From: a virus
Direction: 5' to 3' (one strand)
DNA length: 64,000 bases
IMG/VR virus record: IMGVR_UViG_3300027896_000002
Coordinates: 10,128 to 74,127 of that record
The translations under genes were made by a program, and so were the position numbers. Shown piece after piece: positions 9,856-48,152 of this stretch (its first letter is position 1; every line of letters starts with the position of its first letter). The notes below the pieces were generated by a model. The model had not been told where the DNA came from and ran no database searches. It saw nothing but the letters and a program-made list of their open reading frames with translations.

Positions 9856-10643
9856 TTCTGATCGTCTCAAGGTTTGGTAGAATGAATAAATATCCAGATC
9901 AGGTTATGATGAGGAAAACATTGGCTGCTTTTTTAAGATCTCTGGACAATCAGACGGATAAGGGCTTCAGGGCTTTCTTAAGCTGCCATGATGTACCAGA
10001 GGGGTTCAATTATCCCTGGCTTGAATGGTGTTCGATGGCCGCTAACCCAGAGAACAGTGGCACAAAATACTGGAAACGATTCCCTATAAATCTAGATGAT
10101 CTTGGAGAAAGAATTGTCTGTACGTATGGCAGCAAAATTCAAGACTCTGGCCGTAAGGGGATTCACTCGGTGATAAAAGCAGGGCAATGGGCATATAGAA
10201 ATGGACTAAAAGATTTTTGGATAATGAGGATGGATAGCGACGACATGCTTGCAAAACGCACGATTGAAACTATTCACGCTCTTGATAAGCAAGGGATAGA
10301 GGCTATTTATAATAGACGCTGTCACATCTTTGACGCACGAACAAGAGAGATTGGGGAATATAATTACAGATCTTCTACAACCTGTAACGCTCTTAAGATG
10401 AGAATTGAGAAAAATATACTCCTGCGTTGGTTTTATCTTTGCACCAATCACACGAGATTTATCTCTGATGTGAGGAGAGATAAAATAAAATTTAAAGAGG
10501 TAGACTGGACTTATTGCATTGTCACTAATTCTAGGAATTCAATTTCTAGCAGGCCAACATTAACCGCAGAGAGATGGGCAAGGAAAATTGGCATGACGAA
10601 GAAATTATCAGATCGCTATGGCTTAGATCAGTTTGGGAGATAA
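9852..10643 (+). CDS. Putative glycosyltransferase (GT-A)
   Basis: SLDNQTDKGF, MRMDSDDML (DxD). Confidence 0.65.
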   Translation: MILIVSRFGRMNKYPDQVMMRKTLAAFLRSLDNQTDKGFRAFLSCHDVPEGFNYPWLEWCSMAANPENSGTKYWKRFPINLDDLGERIVCTYGSKIQDSGRKGIHSVIKAGQWAYRNGLKDFWIMRMDSDDMLAKRTIETIHALDKQGIEAIYNRRCHIFDARTREIGEYNYRSSTTCNALKMRIEKNILLRWFYLCTNHTRFISDVRRDKIKFKEVDWTYCIVTNSRNSISSRPTLTAERWARKIGMTKKLSDRYGLDQFGR

Positions 10644-31061: not shown

Positions 31062-31587
31062 CTGTAAGGGGGAAATAACAGCAGAGGCAATAGCTAAGCC
31101 AGTGGCGGCTAAGGTGTCAATTCCTGAACCTGTTGGGAAGTATGATCTTTCTTTCAAGCGCTGGGGAGAGTTTTATTTTCCCTTTGACGACTGGCGCTGG
31201 TGGAAATCTCAGGGGATAGCGGAAAGCAACCTTAACCCAAATGCGGTGTCATGGTGTGGGGCTGTTGGGGTAATGCAAATTATGCCAGCTACTGCAACGG
31301 GTTTAGGCGTAAAGAACAGGTTAGATGCAGAAGAGAGTATCCAGGGAGGAATTAAATACGATAATCAGGTCGATAGAGTTTTTAAAAGTGTTGACCAGCC
31401 AGAGCGAAGGAAATTTATGTTTGCAGGTTACAACGCTGGGCCTGGAAATATTACGAAGGCTAAAAAATTGGCCGGTTCTGATACGTGGGATGTTACCGCA
31501 AATTCTCTTAACCTTGTTACCGGCCATAATTCGTTAGAGACAATAAACTACGTTAAGAGGATCTGCAAAATAAAAAAAGACCTTTAA
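31000..31587 (+). CDS. Lytic transglycosylase endolysin (SLT/MltF-like)
   Basis: AES..NPNAVS..GA.G.MQIMP.T, YNAGPGN, ET.NYV.RI; lipobox-like LLSC. Confidence 0.92.
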   Translation: MIHRQSRFFMLVFLFPLLLLSCKGEITAEAIAKPVAAKVSIPEPVGKYDLSFKRWGEFYFPFDDWRWWKSQGIAESNLNPNAVSWCGAVGVMQIMPATATGLGVKNRLDAEESIQGGIKYDNQVDRVFKSVDQPERRKFMFAGYNAGPGNITKAKKLAGSDTWDVTANSLNLVTGHNSLETINYVKRICKIKKDL

Positions 31588-41413: not shown

Positions 41414-41447
41414 AAAAGGGCTTGAGAAATAAATCCCAAGCCCTTTT
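41414..41447. terminator. Intrinsic terminator-like hairpin
   Basis: AAAAGGGCTTG/CAAGCCCTTTT. Confidence 0.6.
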
Positions 41448-43839: not shown

Positions 43840-43905
43840 GCACTCTTCCTCCCTTAACTTATAAAGCGCCGGCGGGCCTATCATTAGATAAGCCCACCCC
43901 AGGGA
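43840..43905 (-). ncRNA. Candidate pseudoknot RNA motif, copy 1
   Basis: UCCCU/AGGGA; 12-bp hairpin; GCGCUUU/AGAGUGC; conserved GGCG-N6-AAGUUAAGGG. Confidence 0.5.
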
Positions 43906-43906
43906 C

Positions 43907-44101
43907 CTACTTCCTGATGAAGGCGCCGGTCGTTCCCTTTGCAAATTTTCTAATCGCGCTCACGACGCTGGTCAAATCCTTCGGGTCGATTCGCATCGTG
44001 CCAAGAGATGCCTTTCGGTCAGTGGTAAGAAGCATCACGCCAAGGGTCCCACCGTTCTTTTTAATGGCCTTCTTTGCTGGCTTTTTTGCCATGGTCCTCA
44101 C
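43907..44101 (-). CDS. Small basic hypothetical protein
   Basis: ORF with SD. Confidence 0.55.
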   Translation of the reverse strand: MRTMAKKPAKKAIKKNGGTLGVMLLTTDRKASLGTMRIDPKDLTSVVSAIRKFAKGTTGAFIRK

Positions 44102-44134
44102 CTCCTTTCATGGAAAATTTTTACTAATAAAAAA

Positions 44135-44320
44135 TCAACGTAAGTCTATTCTCTCTTTCATTCGGCAATAAATAGGATTCCCAGACCTATCTATAAGTTT
44201 TGGGCTTAAAATGATATGGCATTTTGGACAGGTCAAAGTCTCCCACTTTTTTATCTCCTCTCCCATTGCCATAAATTCATCTCCACATACTGTGCAATAT
44301 AGCATTAAACCCTTTTCCAT
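44135..44320 (-). CDS. Small zinc-ribbon protein
   Basis: CxxC...CxxC. Confidence 0.55.
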   Translation of the reverse strand: MEKGLMLYCTVCGDEFMAMGEEIKKWETLTCPKCHIILSPKLIDRSGNPIYCRMKERIDLR

Positions 44321-44337
44321 TATTTTATTCTCCTTTC

Positions 44338-45105
44338 TTAATGGCCAATTACCCGTTGACCTTGACCTGGGTTATGGCGAAGGGCATTAGCCCTAAGGGA
44401 AACCTCGTTGGCCATTTGCTCACCTCGTCGTTGGCCCTCACTGTTGTGCCGAAACTGGTTTAACCTGTTAGCAGACCTAAGCCCCTTAAGATTTTTCATC
44501 CAATCATTTACCTCAGTCAAGGCCCGATCTAACCTAACCAAGGCGGTGGAGCCAGTAGGAGCTGCTGCGTTTCGCTCGGCATCAAACCGTTTGCTTAGAC
44601 CAAGGACAAAACCATAAAGCCAAGCACTTCGAAAGCCACGAGCTTCAGTCACATCACCATTGTCGCGGCATTCGTAAAAGTACTTGACATATTCCTTCTC
44701 GGCCATCTTCTCCGCAAGCTTATACATGGTTACAAAAAGATATTCGGCAATCTCACGGTCGCTTTTATGCCCAACTAAGCAGATATGATTTGAGCCAACG
44801 GAAATTAAGATCTTACAGAAATGGGCCTTAGCAATGATGCTGGCTAATTGCTCAGACCATTGCTGACGGGCCTTTTTTGAAGTAATTCCTTGAGTTTCAA
44901 AGTCAACCCATACCTTACAAATGGGGTCGGTATCTTCTCTCTTGTCCCAATCAACTTCAGACATAGAAAGATTGTGCTTGAGCAGCAGCTGATTAACCAT
45001 TCCAGCAAAGGCCTCGGCCTCTTCTTGGCTACCAATTTTCTCACATGATTCTGCCTTTGCATGAAGCTTTCGAATCTTGTCAATTACTTTTTCCTCGGTT
45101 GTCAT
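44338..45105 (-). CDS. DUF2786 domain protein
   Basis: KIRKL.AKA....EAE.F......LL.KHNL; F..GF. Confidence 0.8.
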   Translation of the reverse strand: MTTEEKVIDKIRKLHAKAESCEKIGSQEEAEAFAGMVNQLLLKHNLSMSEVDWDKREDTDPICKVWVDFETQGITSKKARQQWSEQLASIIAKAHFCKILISVGSNHICLVGHKSDREIAEYLFVTMYKLAEKMAEKEYVKYFYECRDNGDVTEARGFRSAWLYGFVLGLSKRFDAERNAAAPTGSTALVRLDRALTEVNDWMKNLKGLRSANRLNQFRHNSEGQRRGEQMANEVSLRANALRHNPGQGQRVIGH

Positions 45106-45134
45106 GGTGGTCTCCTCCTTTTAGATTTTATTTT

Positions 45135-45190
45135 GTTACCTACCTGGGATTAAACCCAGGTTTCGGCCATTTAGGCCTCATCAGGGCAAC
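45135..45190 (-). ncRNA. Hammerhead ribozyme (type I), GUA cleavage
   Basis: GUUGCC-CUGAUGA-GGCC UAAAU GGCC-GAAA-CCUGGG UUUAAU CCCAGG-UA-GGUAAC. Confidence 0.93.
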
Positions 45191-45540
45191 TGAATTGAAA
45201 TTTCAAGGCCATCTTTAAAACTTTGAATTGTGAGTGGAATTTCCTTAATCCGTAAAATCTTTGAAAGGTTTTTTCCTTGCAGGTCAGTCAATGGTTCTTT
45301 AAAATACAGGTGCAATAAAGCCCGTTTATAGGAAAAAGGCTTTGTTTCCATGAAGGAATTGTTAAAATACATCTGAGACCTGACAACCTCAATGCCCCTT
45401 CGTTTAAGGATTGGAAACACTGTTGTTATATGCTTATCAGCCAAGTCACTTAAAAGCTTGCAGTTTTTTTCTGCTAAATCTGCCTCAAGTAAAAGTTCTT
45501 GAACTTCCATCTCAATTCGTTCCTTATTAATCTTTTCCAT
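45181..45540 (-). CDS. Hypothetical early protein
   Basis: Conserved leader; stop is the first UGA of a hammerhead core. Confidence 0.65.
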   Translation of the reverse strand: MEKINKERIEMEVQELLLEADLAEKNCKLLSDLADKHITTVFPILKRRGIEVVRSQMYFNNSFMETKPFSYKRALLHLYFKEPLTDLQGKNLSKILRIKEIPLTIQSFKDGLEISIQLP

Positions 45541-45570
45541 GGTCTCCTCCTTTTGAATTTTATTTTATAG

Positions 45571-45756
45571 TTAACAATCAAATTTACTTTCAACCTTAAA
45601 CTTCTTGATCGCTTCATTCAGATAACTTTTCTCAATCTGCTTTCCCGCTGAAACAAGAATCGCATAATCGAGGTCACATCCCTTTAATGTGATCATCAGG
45701 GCTAATTTTAATTGGGCTGGCGTCATTTGCATTATGATGCTTTCTAAATTTTCCAT
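45571..45756 (-). CDS. Hypothetical early protein
   Basis: Conserved leader. Confidence 0.6.
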   Translation of the reverse strand: MENLESIIMQMTPAQLKLALMITLKGCDLDYAILVSAGKQIEKSYLNEAIKKFKVESKFDC

Positions 45757-45782
45757 AGTCTCCTCCTTTTGAATTTTATTTT

Positions 45783-45838
45783 ACCACCGACCCGAGATTA
45801 ATCTCGGGTTTCGACCATTGAGGTCTCATCAGGATGAT
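45783..45838 (-). ncRNA. Hammerhead ribozyme (type I), GUC cleavage
   Basis: AUCAUC-CUGAUGA-GACC UCAAU GGUC-GAAA-CCCGAG AUUAAU CUCGGG-UC-GGUGGU. Confidence 0.94.
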
Positions 45839-46215
45839 TTTCTTGCCTGAAATGTTTCTCCTCTTTTCTCGATGATTGCCCCTAATTGAAAAGCCGCTGC
45901 CATATCTATTAGATCTTGTACCTCCTCTTTAGCAAGTTTAACGGCTCTGGCAACACTCATCTTCCAATTTTTAATGTAATGATCTCGAAGTTGAAAGAGT
46001 AAAGTTTCTTCAAGAACTGGAAGCTCTACCACTTTCATCGTGGTGGTAGATTTATTGCACTCAACTCCCGCCATTGACCGTCGGCATCCACAGCTTCCAT
46101 CCACTGTCTCACCATCACACTCAAAGGAAAAATGAACAATCTCACCTTCCGGTACCCAGCAAAAATCATTTTTCCTTTGCCCCTGCATCTCTTTCGTTGC
46201 CACGATAATCTTCAT
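45829..46215 (-). CDS. Conserved Cys-containing hypothetical protein
   Basis: VAT..QG.R.NDF, C....CGC.R motif. Confidence 0.65.
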   Translation of the reverse strand: MKIIVATKEMQGQRKNDFCWVPEGEIVHFSFECDGETVDGSCGCRRSMAGVECNKSTTTMKVVELPVLEETLLFQLRDHYIKNWKMSVARAVKLAKEEVQDLIDMAAAFQLGAIIEKRGETFQARKSS

Positions 46216-46256
46216 AATCAGTCTCCTCCGTTTTGCCCATTGGGCGGTTAAAGGTT

Positions 46257-46403
46257 TTAATAAATTTCCCTGGCATTGATCGAATCAACTGTGATCTTTG
46301 CTGGCCCATTTTCCAAGGTCATTTTAATATACTCTTCGATCTGCCCGTCACCATCCATCTCACCATCATTGACTTCAATCTCCATTATAACTTTTATCTT
46401 CAT
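46257..46403 (-). CDS. Small acidic hypothetical protein (48 aa)
   Basis: ATG after conserved leader; not in ORF track. Confidence 0.6.
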   Translation of the reverse strand: MKIKVIMEIEVNDGEMDGDGQIEEYIKMTLENGPAKITVDSINAREIY

Positions 46404-46429
46404 GGTCTCCTCCTTTTTAATTTTATTCT

Positions 46430-46484
46430 ATCATCGACCCGAGTTAAACTCGGGTTTCGACCATTTAGGTCTCATCAGGATGAT
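46430..46484 (-). ncRNA. Hammerhead ribozyme (type I), GUC cleavage
   Basis: AUCAUC-CUGAUGA-GACC UAAAU GGUC-GAAA-CCCGAG UUUAA CUCGGG-UC-GAUGAU. Confidence 0.95.
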
Positions 46485-46500
46485 TTTTATATTTTTCTCA

Positions 46501-46779
46501 TTAGATTACTCTTACGATAGAAAGATAAGGTGTCGTATCCTGCTCCAATTTCCATCGCATCCTATCAACTATCAAATTAAGATCCATTCTGTGCGTGAAG
46601 TCTTGCTCCTCACCGTGCTCAAAATTAATGGTCACGATGAACTCCGTCTTCTCCTCGTCCTGCATATTGCTGTGAGAAGAAGAGACTCTCGACTTTGGAA
46701 AAAAAGATGCTGCCACTCTATAAAGACTGTTCATCTCGTTCCATGCTACTGCTCTTTTTTCCTGAATTTTTTTATTCAT
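46501..46779 (-). CDS. Hypothetical early protein
   Basis: Conserved leader. Confidence 0.6.
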   Translation of the reverse strand: MNKKIQEKRAVAWNEMNSLYRVAASFFPKSRVSSSHSNMQDEEKTEFIVTINFEHGEEQDFTHRMDLNLIVDRMRWKLEQDTTPYLSIVRVI

Positions 46780-46814
46780 TTTGGTCTCCTCCTTTTAAAA
46801 TTTGAATTTAAAAT

Positions 46815-47009
46815 TTAAGGCAATACAACAATTTCCAAAGCACCAGGAAAATTTCTTTTTATCTCTTTTAGAGCACTGGTAAAAAATCCATATCTCATTT
46901 CTCTAAAAGCCTGGCCGTTAGAATATTTAATATTAAACCACCATTGACCTTTTCCTTTTGGTTCTTTTCCATGGCTAAAAAAATATTCATTCTTATTTAT
47001 TGCTTTCAT
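46815..47009 (-). CDS. Hypothetical early protein
   Basis: Conserved leader; SHGK.PKG.G.W.F motif. Confidence 0.65.
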   Translation of the reverse strand: MKAINKNEYFFSHGKEPKGKGQWWFNIKYSNGQAFREMRYGFFTSALKEIKRNFPGALEIVVLP

Positions 47010-47037
47010 CTTGGTCTCCTCCTTTTAAATTTTTTAG

Positions 47038-47280
47038 TTAGAACCTGCAGTTAACTTCAAAGTAAGAATCCTTTGGCCATGCTCGCCATATTTTCCAAGC
47101 ATTGATAATCTCGACATGGGGAAATATTTTTTTAATTTGTTCAGCATAACTCTCAGCTGTTTTCCCAAAGGTATAAAAGAATCCAAACCTAAAACTTATC
47201 GTCTTATCCTTTTTGAAGATAATTTTATCAGGATAGATATTGGTCCCATCAATCATCTCTTTGAATTGTCTTTTTGTCAT
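47038..47280 (-). CDS. Hypothetical early protein
   Basis: Conserved leader. Confidence 0.65.
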   Translation of the reverse strand: MTKRQFKEMIDGTNIYPDKIIFKKDKTISFRFGFFYTFGKTAESYAEQIKKIFPHVEIINAWKIWRAWPKDSYFEVNCRF

Positions 47281-47438
47281 GGTCTCCTCCTTTTTTTACT
47301 TAATCCCTTTAACAAGGATTTGAAGTGCGACCGGCTCTAAAGAAAATAGAACCTTAATCGCTGTTAGAAATCCAATGATCTTCCAAATTCCAAAAAAATT
47401 TTTCTTTGTGATGTTGCCTTTCATTTTGGTCTCCTCCT

Positions 47439-47573
47439 TTATTTTTTGATAAGGCTTTTATGAATAATTTTTCCAGTAGAAAGTACAAGAAAACCTCTAC
47501 CATAACCATCTTCCTTTGTTGCTTTTCTAATAATAAAAATTTCCTTATTTCTAAACGTGTAAACTTTTCTCAT
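47439..47573 (-). CDS. Small hypothetical protein (44 aa)
   Basis: ATG after conserved leader; not in ORF track. Confidence 0.55.
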   Translation of the reverse strand: MRKVYTFRNKEIFIIRKATKEDGYGRGFLVLSTGKIIHKSLIKK

Positions 47574-47597
47574 GGTCTCCTCCTTTTAAATTTTAAT

Positions 47598-47672
47598 CGC
47601 GGCTTGCAACCCTTAACTTTTTTACCGCCGGCATGATCTATATCTTAATGATATAAACCACGCCACAGGGTC
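47598..47672 (-). ncRNA. Candidate pseudoknot RNA motif, copy 2
   Basis: GACCCU/AGGGUU; 15-bp hairpin; GCGGU/GCCGC; conserved GGCG-N6-AAGUUAAGGG. Confidence 0.5.
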
Positions 47673-47885
47673 ATTTTGTCTTTTCACTCTTCAGTTGTCA
47701 AGGTTGGTGGCGGATTATTCTAATGATAGGCCTGAAAAATGTTTTTCAGATCCTACGTTCGAAACGCCTTGGTTATTGTCAAAAACTTCTGCCTTTGCCA
47801 ATGAGGCTTGGTCCCCGGCTCGCTTGTTGCCTTTGTTTCTCGCCTCGCTTGCCTCATGATATTTATTAATCTTAACCATGACCTA

Positions 47886-47914
47886 ATCCTACTATATCTA
47901 AATGATAATGTAAA
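47886..47914 (-). promoter_or_regulatory. Sigma70-type early promoter
   Basis: TTTACA-17 nt-TAGGAT with AT-rich upstream region, facing the early gene array. Confidence 0.65.
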
Positions 47915-47941
47915 TACTTTTTTTCATTTCCAGGAAAATAG

Positions 47942-48061
47942 TTTCTAAGTTATTGAAATCATTAGGCTTTTTAATCATTAATTTTTTTTAATTTTAACCA
48001 TTTTTCTGTCTTAAAAAAGCTTCATGGTACATGTTTTTCTAAGTTATTGAAATTATTAGGC
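47942..48061. repeat. 26-bp direct repeat with IHF-like core
   Basis: TTTCTAAGTTATTGAAATYATTAGGC at 47942 and 48036. Confidence 0.7.
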
Positions 48062-48152
48062 CTTTTGAGTTAGAAACTAACACATTTCTCCTGGATAATA
48101 TTATTTTTTTCAATATTCAATTCCATGATGATCTGGACATCATTATAGAGCT

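Follow-up and report, generated by a model that had tools for sequence, protein, structure and literature searches.

The DNA analyzed here is a stretch of 64,000 nucleotides (nt) from IMG/VR record IMGVR_UViG_3300027896_000002, positions 10,128 to 74,127. We refer to this whole stretch as the window. The source record is a complete 74-kb phage from a freshwater metagenome, of which the window covers 64 kb. The phage has no close cultured relative, and its capsid protein is at most 27% identical to that of any phage in GenBank. An early array of about 15 small genes occupies the - strand between about 47.9 and 42 kb, and nearly every gene in it is preceded by the same A-rich leader with a AAAGGAGGAGACC ribosome-binding site (13 copies on the - strand, versus 0.4 expected). 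At two of the junctions between these genes, a short sequence (the motif) is found directly upstream of the leader. An earlier note had proposed that these two copies are a candidate new ribozyme or cis-acting RNA. From comparisons of sequences, we conclude that the motif is a real, strand-specific, pseudoknot-type cis-acting RNA of the early polycistronic transcript, and that it is absent from Rfam.

The two copies and their parts are as follows (bp, base pairs; S1 and S2, the two crossing stems):

43840-43906, - strand: motif copy 1, 67 nt (covariance-model match 37.3 bits, E = 2.8e-6)
43901-43905, - strand: copy 1, S1 5' strand UCCCU, with its partner AGGGA at 43850-43854
43871-43898, - strand: copy 1, variable hairpin, 12 bp including 2 G-U pairs, loop UAAU
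43863-43869, - strand: copy 1, S2 5' strand GCGCUUU, with its partner AGAGUGC at 43840-43846
43851-43860, - strand: copy 1, invariant block AAGUUAAGGG (loop L2 and S1 3' strand)
47598-47672, - strand: motif copy 2, 75 nt, at the head of the small-gene array (covariance-model match 101.7 bits)
47667-47672, - strand: copy 2, S1 5' strand GACCCU, with its partner AGGGUU at 47608-47613
47630-47664, - strand: copy 2, variable hairpin, 15 bp including 4 G-U pairs, loop AUUAA
47624-47628, - strand: copy 2, S2 5' strand GCGGU, with its partner GCCGC at 47599-47603
47673-47692, - strand: 5' flank of copy 2, GAAGAGUGAAAAGACAAAAU, 20 nt, conserved among copy-2-type instances only

Copy 1 has the order G-UCCCU-GG, then the hairpin GGUGGGCUUAUC/GAUAGGCCCGCC, then G-GCGCUUU-AUAAGUUA-AGGGA-GGA-AGAGUGC. 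Copy 2 has the order GACCCU-GU, then the hairpin GGCGUGGUUUAUAUC/GAUAUAGAUCAUGCC, then G-GCGGU-AAAAAAGUUA-AGGGUU-GCAA-GCCGC. The layout that they share is N-CCCU, G-N, the 12- or 15-bp hairpin, G, the S2 5' strand, A-AAGUUA, AGGG-N, 3-4 nt, and the S2 3' strand. S1 (5-6 bp, N-CCCU with AGGG-N) crosses S2 (5-7 bp), and the hairpin is inserted between them. Both copies are on the - strand and lie where the earlier note had placed them, and the parts that it described (a shared CCCUG, hairpins of unrelated sequence, and GGCG-N6-AAGUUAAGGG) are all present. The window has two matches to the pattern CCCTG-N22-44-GGCG-N6-AAGTTAAGGG, and 100 shuffles have none.

For both copies, minimum-free-energy folding returns the hairpin and S2. 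The folding z-scores of copies 1 and 2 are -2.8 and -3.9 on the - strand, versus -1.2 and -0.7 on the + strand. The - strand folds better because the stems hold many G-U pairs; the note had pointed to such pairs in the hairpin.

Both copies end 16-17 nt upstream of the shared AAAGGAGGAGACC ribosome-binding leader; copy 1 ends 13 nt ahead of AAAGGAGGAGAC, and copy 2 ends 11 nt ahead of it. The predicted fold leaves the Shine-Dalgarno sequence unsequestered. Copy 1 begins one base past the TAG stop codon (43909-43907) of a basic open reading frame (ORF) of 64 amino acids (43907-44101), while copy 2 begins about 40 nt past the stop codon of another small ORF, ORF A, which is described below. A stop-codon read-through knot was considered and rejected, as copy 2 is not located at a stop codon. 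Contigs from the source run show no sequence variants within either copy.

We also came across a look-alike at 31490-31560 (- strand; GGUAACAAGGUUAAGAG, with an 8-bp partner upstream), which resembles the 3' half of the motif. It is antisense within a 195-amino-acid ORF on the + strand, so we judged the resemblance to be due to chance.

Homologues and conservation of the motif

The strict pattern matched four metagenome contigs from JGI (L003-L006), all with the copy-2 form. Together with the two copies in the window, this gives six instances with five distinct sequences. The context of the copy-2 form is constant in all four contigs: a helicase gene, an AT-rich control region, a promoter (TTTACA-17-TATATT/TAGGAT), ORF A, about 40 nt, the motif, the leader, and the first gene of the array. 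The gene downstream of the motif differs in every instance, which suggests that the motif has a generic role and not a gene-specific one. The L006 contig and the window are syntenic, with a nucleotide identity of 78-84%, yet the L006 motif is identical at 72 of 75 positions (96%); the changes in the hairpin keep the pairing.

The earlier note had proposed building a covariance model from its two copies and looking for homologues with covariation. Four metagenomic homologues were found, and they retain the pairing. A covariance model built from the copy-2-type sequences alone recovers copy 1 with E = 2.8e-6, in a search space of 0.95 Mb. The same model found nothing besides copy 1 in this 0.95 Mb of more distant phage loci.

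Given the structure with both crossing stems, 98.3% of cells pair (among the five distinct sequences), versus 28-43% with slid partners. Nine pairs are changed on both sides, a number that was reached in none of 500 shuffles. Seven of these are in the hairpin, one is in S1 (U-A versus A-U), and one is in S2 (C-G versus G-C); S1 also shows a G-U/A-U change. Thus, the covariation that the note had seen in S1 and S2 is real but thin, with one doubly changed pair in each. From this alignment, we regard the hairpin as certain, while the support for the crossing-stem knot is real but thin.

The pattern of conservation is a stronger argument for function than the covariation. The hairpins of the two paralogues have diverged almost completely, yet CCCUG, CCGGCG, and AAGUUAAGGG are identical letter for letter. 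About eleven unpaired nucleotides are invariant: the G after S1, the G before S2, A-AAGUUA, and a G and an A in the last loop. Because the junction nucleotides are kept while the hairpins diverge, these nucleotides themselves appear to be under selection, as in ribozymes and aptamers.

The family is very narrow: so far, it comprises this phage and four close metagenomic relatives. The strict pattern had no matches in IMG/VR or in the genomes of 185,579 species (one genome per species). A relaxed pattern (GCCGGCG-N6-AAGTTAAG) had 37 chance matches in IMG/VR, none of them with the fold, and blastn against the GenBank phages gave only noise. Using three proteins from the window and ORF A, no relatives were found in IMG/VR. 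A profile of the helicase identified 80 loci in IMG/VR and 80 loci in genomes (L090-L169), at 45% identity or below; the motif searches covered only the IMG/VR loci. Helicase homologues with 56-88% identity were identified as well. Covariance model R1 found no motif in these 80 IMG/VR loci, and a descriptor script found no further motif in L003-L086 or the window.

Hammerheads and the proposed role of the motif

The array also contains three hammerhead ribozymes:

46430-46484, - strand: hammerhead 1, type I (33.7 bits for RF00163, versus a gathering threshold of 34; 45.2 bits for the RAGATH-1 form)
45784-45853, - strand: hammerhead 2, type I, with the stop codon of the upstream ORF inside CUGAUGA (45829-45832)
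45136-45215, - strand: hammerhead 3, type I, with the stop codon of the upstream ORF inside CUGAUGA (45181-45184)

There are exactly three hammerheads in the window. All have perfect cores and all fall just below the gathering cut-offs of Rfam (the RAGATH-1 scores of hammerheads 1-3 are 45.2, 28.6, and 23.0, versus a cut-off of 56.3). A search of the array with the hammerhead core pattern found only these three true hammerheads. Annotating this phage with the Rfam defaults yields no RNA of any kind. In hammerheads 2 and 3, where the CUGAUGA core includes the stop codon, ribozyme folding must compete with terminating ribosomes.

As the note had observed, the hammerheads occupy the same slot as the motif: at three other junctions, they too are 16-17 nt before the common leader. 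The gene directly behind the motif in L006 is orthologous (85% identical) to the one behind hammerhead 1 in the window, which is further indication that the motif and the hammerheads share a slot. This 48-amino-acid gene is the first of the array in L006 (413-556) and the seventh in the window (46260-46403). Also, the L006 contig ends in a hammerhead, and in contigs from minor strains of the source sample, the cassettes are joined differently at the leaders (X1 joints 46421-47292 and 46487-46231). Thus, the array consists of cassettes that recombine at the shared leader. Another recurring junction element is a conserved small hairpin, GCCCAAUGGGC in CCUUUAACCGCCCAAUGGGCAAAAC, which precedes another cassette (46225-46255 in the window, about 905-930 in L003, and about 385-410 in L006).

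We tentatively favor the view that the motif is an mRNA processing or 5'-end-defining element, a counterpart of the operon's hammerheads. It would fold during transcription and would define the 5' end of the downstream message, in one of two ways. The motif might cleave itself, as an undescribed small ribozyme. Alternatively, a compact knot might be left in front of the leader because the motif is cut or because it stops a host RNase. Self-cleavage would carry about half of the weight of this proposal. Our analysis shows the sequence, fold, strand, conservation, covariation, and position of the motif and the slot that it shares with a hammerhead; any cleavage or end-protecting activity is putative. 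Copy 1 lies right at a stop codon, just as hammerheads 2 and 3 overlap stop codons, which would suit a co-transcriptional element. The proposed role of clustered phage hammerheads is to divide long transcripts into gene-length mRNAs (PMC3088659), and unrelated classes of ribozymes share such loci, which suggests that the exact motif is not important (PMC6765202). That the motif and the hammerheads are found at the same kind of junction agrees with the idea in the note, and with the view that such loci require cleavage and not any one fold (PMC6765202, PMC3088659).

Several observations weigh against a processing role. Five of the six instances are at the head of the operon, after ORF A, and there is no hammerhead within 1-2 kb of the motif in L003 or L005, so the link between the motif and the hammerheads is weaker than the link between the motif and the operon head. 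Each crossing stem has just a single doubly changed pair, S2 of L003 has a C-A mismatch, and the whole diversity of the family amounts to two paralogues and their close relatives. The additional 20 nt that are conserved upstream of the copy-2 type would be unusual for a small self-cleaving RNA. Nor would a plain barrier to RNase call for eleven unpaired bases that are invariant. Finally, other structured RNAs from ribozyme-associated loci failed to cleave when they were tested (PMC6765202).

The early control region and other explanations

The alternatives depend on the features around copy 2 and at the far end of the array:

47715-47879, - strand: ORF A, 54 amino acids, a conserved small protein encoded directly upstream of the copy-2-type motif in every case
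47914-47886, - strand: predicted early promoter TTTACA-17-TAGGAT, upstream of ORF A
41414-41447, - strand: strong intrinsic-terminator-like hairpin, 14 bp, with an A-tract and a U-tract; it is the first such hairpin downstream of the array and lies directly after a 282-amino-acid ORF

ORF A has 47-52 amino acids in the relatives; its motif is NKGNKRAGD..LAKAGV.DNNQGV, and it has no match in Pfam or PHROG. ORF A starts only 6 nt past the -10 element of the promoter, so its mRNA is probably leaderless. The copy-2-type motif is about 215 nt downstream of this predicted promoter. The 5' flank of copy 2 (GAAGAGUGAAAAGACAAAAU) overlaps a promoter-like match, TTGACA-17-CAAAAT. We rejected a sigma-70 promoter here, as the relatives do not keep the match and it is not repeated in the genome. 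The AT-rich control region that separates the helicase gene from the early promoter (47860-48150 generally) contains two 31-nt direct repeats, TTTCTAAGTTATTGAAAT[CT]ATTAGGC.., at 47942-47972 and 48036-48066, 94 nt apart. These are conserved in L003-L006, and they look like operators or origin iterons. At the other end, the hairpin at 41414-41447 is likely a bidirectional intrinsic terminator that divides the small-gene array from the genes for nucleotide metabolism and the polymerase. No tRNA-like element was found.

It is possible, though unlikely, that the motif is a processive antitermination or anti-pausing RNA in the style of HK022 put or EAR. The nascent knot would bind RNA polymerase and allow it to read through downstream terminators into the genes for replication and nucleotide metabolism. 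The operon-head context would fit a put- or nut-like role about as well as it fits processing: in five of the six instances, the motif is found at the start of the early operon, past the first small ORF and about 215 nt from the predicted promoter, and putR, about 270 nt from PR, has the same layout (PMC9378689). The motif also parallels put in having two copies, each about 70 nt, that share sequence and have no fixed downstream gene. The invariant unpaired nucleotides would suit a specific macromolecular contact, and further genes of the same strand lie beyond the strong terminator-like hairpin (41447-41414). However, no terminator-like site was found inside the array, no similar sequence was found in the GenBank phages, and Rfam has no match to EAR or other leaders. 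To our knowledge, antiterminators that consist of RNA alone are very rare. The fold of put is two stem-loops with a triplex and lacks crossing stems (PMC9378689). Furthermore, copy 1 sits 4 kb from the promoter, in the same operon as copy 2, and put acts over at least 10 kb without a tether (PMC9378689), so antitermination would leave the second copy unexplained. We considered that the second copy might re-arm the polymerase after cleavage by a hammerhead, and dropped this idea because put needs no tether (PMC9378689).

A rather doubtful alternative is that the motif is an operator for an RNA-binding protein from the phage or the host, or an aptamer for a small ligand, and that it tunes the translation or stability of the next cistron. 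The models for this are the control of T4 gene 32 and regA-type control, with a pseudoknot and then an unstructured A/U-rich leader. The motif is likewise followed by an A/U-rich leader with a strong Shine-Dalgarno sequence 16-17 nt away, and its single-stranded parts have a high information content. There is also a small basic ORF directly upstream of each copy (ORF A and the 64-amino-acid ORF at 43907-44101), but these two proteins are not paralogues and neither of them matches any family. The changing downstream genes argue against an operator as well, as do the accessible Shine-Dalgarno sequence and the lack of a match to any riboswitch family. And ribosomes that finish at the adjacent stop codon would unwind copy 1 in each round.

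It is improbable that the motif has no function as RNA and is instead duplicated DNA, a recombination scar at the boundary of a cassette, or a DNA hairpin tied to an origin- or operator-like region. The array is indeed a mosaic that recombines at the shared leader, hammerhead 3 also begins with CCCUG (GCCCUGAUGAGG), and copy 2 is about 270 nt from the conserved operator- or iteron-like repeats; but copy 1 is nowhere near these repeats. The hairpins differ in sequence and length and yet they pair, via G-U-rich compensation that is valid on one strand only. The conserved blocks are unpaired junctions rather than a palindrome, and the motif of L006 is far closer to copy 2 (96%) than its flanks are.

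Few classes of natural self-cleaving ribozymes are known, and the last three were found beside hammerheads in phage-like gene arrays. The motif has the same setting. As it is short and well defined, it is a cheap candidate for self-cleavage. Cleavage would make it a new class of ribozyme, or else a permuted variant of a striking kind. Otherwise, there would still be a conserved knot where a phage early operon begins, and this knot may prove to be an antiterminator or an operator. Either result would bear on why phages place RNA devices between small early genes. The very narrow distribution limits the general importance of the motif.

Comparison with known RNA families

The earlier note could not match the motif to twister, pistol, twister-sister, or HDV, and the Rfam models agree; hatchet does not match either. 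With gathering thresholds, Rfam had no match in the whole window. With E <= 10, scans of 4.1 kb and of each copy alone (pieces of 131 and 151 nt) gave only noise, such as GP_knot2 with 12 bits versus a gathering threshold of 80. Because the models are unmatched and the defining features are absent, we do not place the motif in any known ribozyme family.

For twister, we take the consensus to be P1, P2, P4, the pseudoknots T1 and T2, and the adenosines at the cleavage site. Of these, the motif has only a T2-like CCC/GGG pairing and an A-rich strand. The upstream partner strands for P1, P4, and T1 are absent or are not conserved between the copies, and there is no Rfam match. The HDV-like order (P1-P2-P3-P1'-P1.1-P4-P2') does not fit, as the hairpin of the motif is between S1 and S2 and not after the 5' strand of P2. 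Also, P3 and P4 cannot form, the catalytic C of J4/2 cannot be placed (the last loop of copy 1 has no C), and Rfam has no HDV-like match. Hatchet, which cleaves at the base of P1, is built of four nested stems (P1-P4) and has conserved nucleotides both in the segment joining P1 to P2 and in the bulges that separate P2 from P3 (PMC6154101); the motif is one hairpin and two crossing stems and has no Rfam match to hatchet. For twister-sister, there is no Rfam match on the motif.

In shape, the nearest family is pistol (RF02679; PMC4604425), which is also a small pseudoknotted RNA from phage-associated loci. In both, a variable hairpin has a pseudoknot strand immediately on its 5' side and, after a very short junction on its 3' side, a strand of the helix that crosses the pseudoknot. 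However, the order of the strands in the motif is circularly permuted. The motif lacks P1: the 3' strand of the pseudoknot is in the loop closed by S2, and the flanking bases are unable to form P1. The junction at the cleavage site of pistol is strictly 2 nt (PMC4604425), while the junction between the hairpin and S2 is a single G (43870 or 47629) in all six instances. The ten conserved nucleotides of pistol cannot be placed on the motif, and the pistol covariance model had no match with E <= 10 to the 131- and 151-nt pieces scanned alone. We sought pistols for a permuted comparison and found none in 151 genomes from the class of the Paenibacillus genome behind L130. Our comparison with G40 of pistol uses what we presume to be the env25 sequence, so it is a lead only. 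That the motif is a divergent known ribozyme, either a pistol that has lost P1 and been circularly permuted or a hammerhead that has decayed, is very improbable: the order S1a-hairpin-S2a-S1b-S2b does equal the pseudoknot-P3-P2 order of pistol if the latter is opened between P2 and the pseudoknot with the natural ends closed, which gives pseudoknot-P3-P2-pseudoknot-P2, a conserved G follows the pseudoknot strand like G40 (PMC4604425, PMC6154101), and hammerhead 1 is preceded by a sequence similar to the 5' flank AAAAU-A-CCUG, but these likenesses are set against the missing P1, the 1-nt junction, the missing hammerhead core, and the lack of any Rfam match at E <= 10.

The clustered phage hammerheads (PMC3088659; RF00163, RF03152) resemble the motif in setting, as it is in the same operon, on the same strand, and in the same position before the leader. 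The motif lacks their three-way junction and has a crossing stem in place of stem III. The hammerhead core (CUGANGA...GAAA) is absent, there is no GA-tandem partner strand and no stem III, and neither RF00163 nor RF03152 matches the motif at E <= 10.

The put RNAs of HK022 (PMC9378689) are, like the motif, two related cis-acting RNAs of about 70 nt from the early region of a phage, and the placement of copy 2, about 215 nt downstream of the early promoter and after the first small gene, resembles that of putR. The folds differ, with two stem-loops and a short triplex in put versus crossing stems in the motif. Also, both copies of the motif are in one operon, and there is no sequence similarity to put.

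RAGATH candidates are structured RNAs found close to genes that accompany twister and hammerhead ribozymes (Weinberg et al. 2015, 2017; summarized in PMC6765202). No RAGATH model matches the motif, and it is confined to one clade of phages, versus many lineages for the RAGATH kind. Otherwise the likeness is close. The motif is small, conserved, and covarying, and its intergenic slots are in phage-like arrays of small genes that also hold hammerheads. It is a ribozyme candidate by association. With its covariation, the three hammerheads in its operon, and the hammerhead at the end of L006, the motif belongs with RNAs of this kind, and it is best described as a ribozyme-associated structured RNA that has yet to be catalogued.

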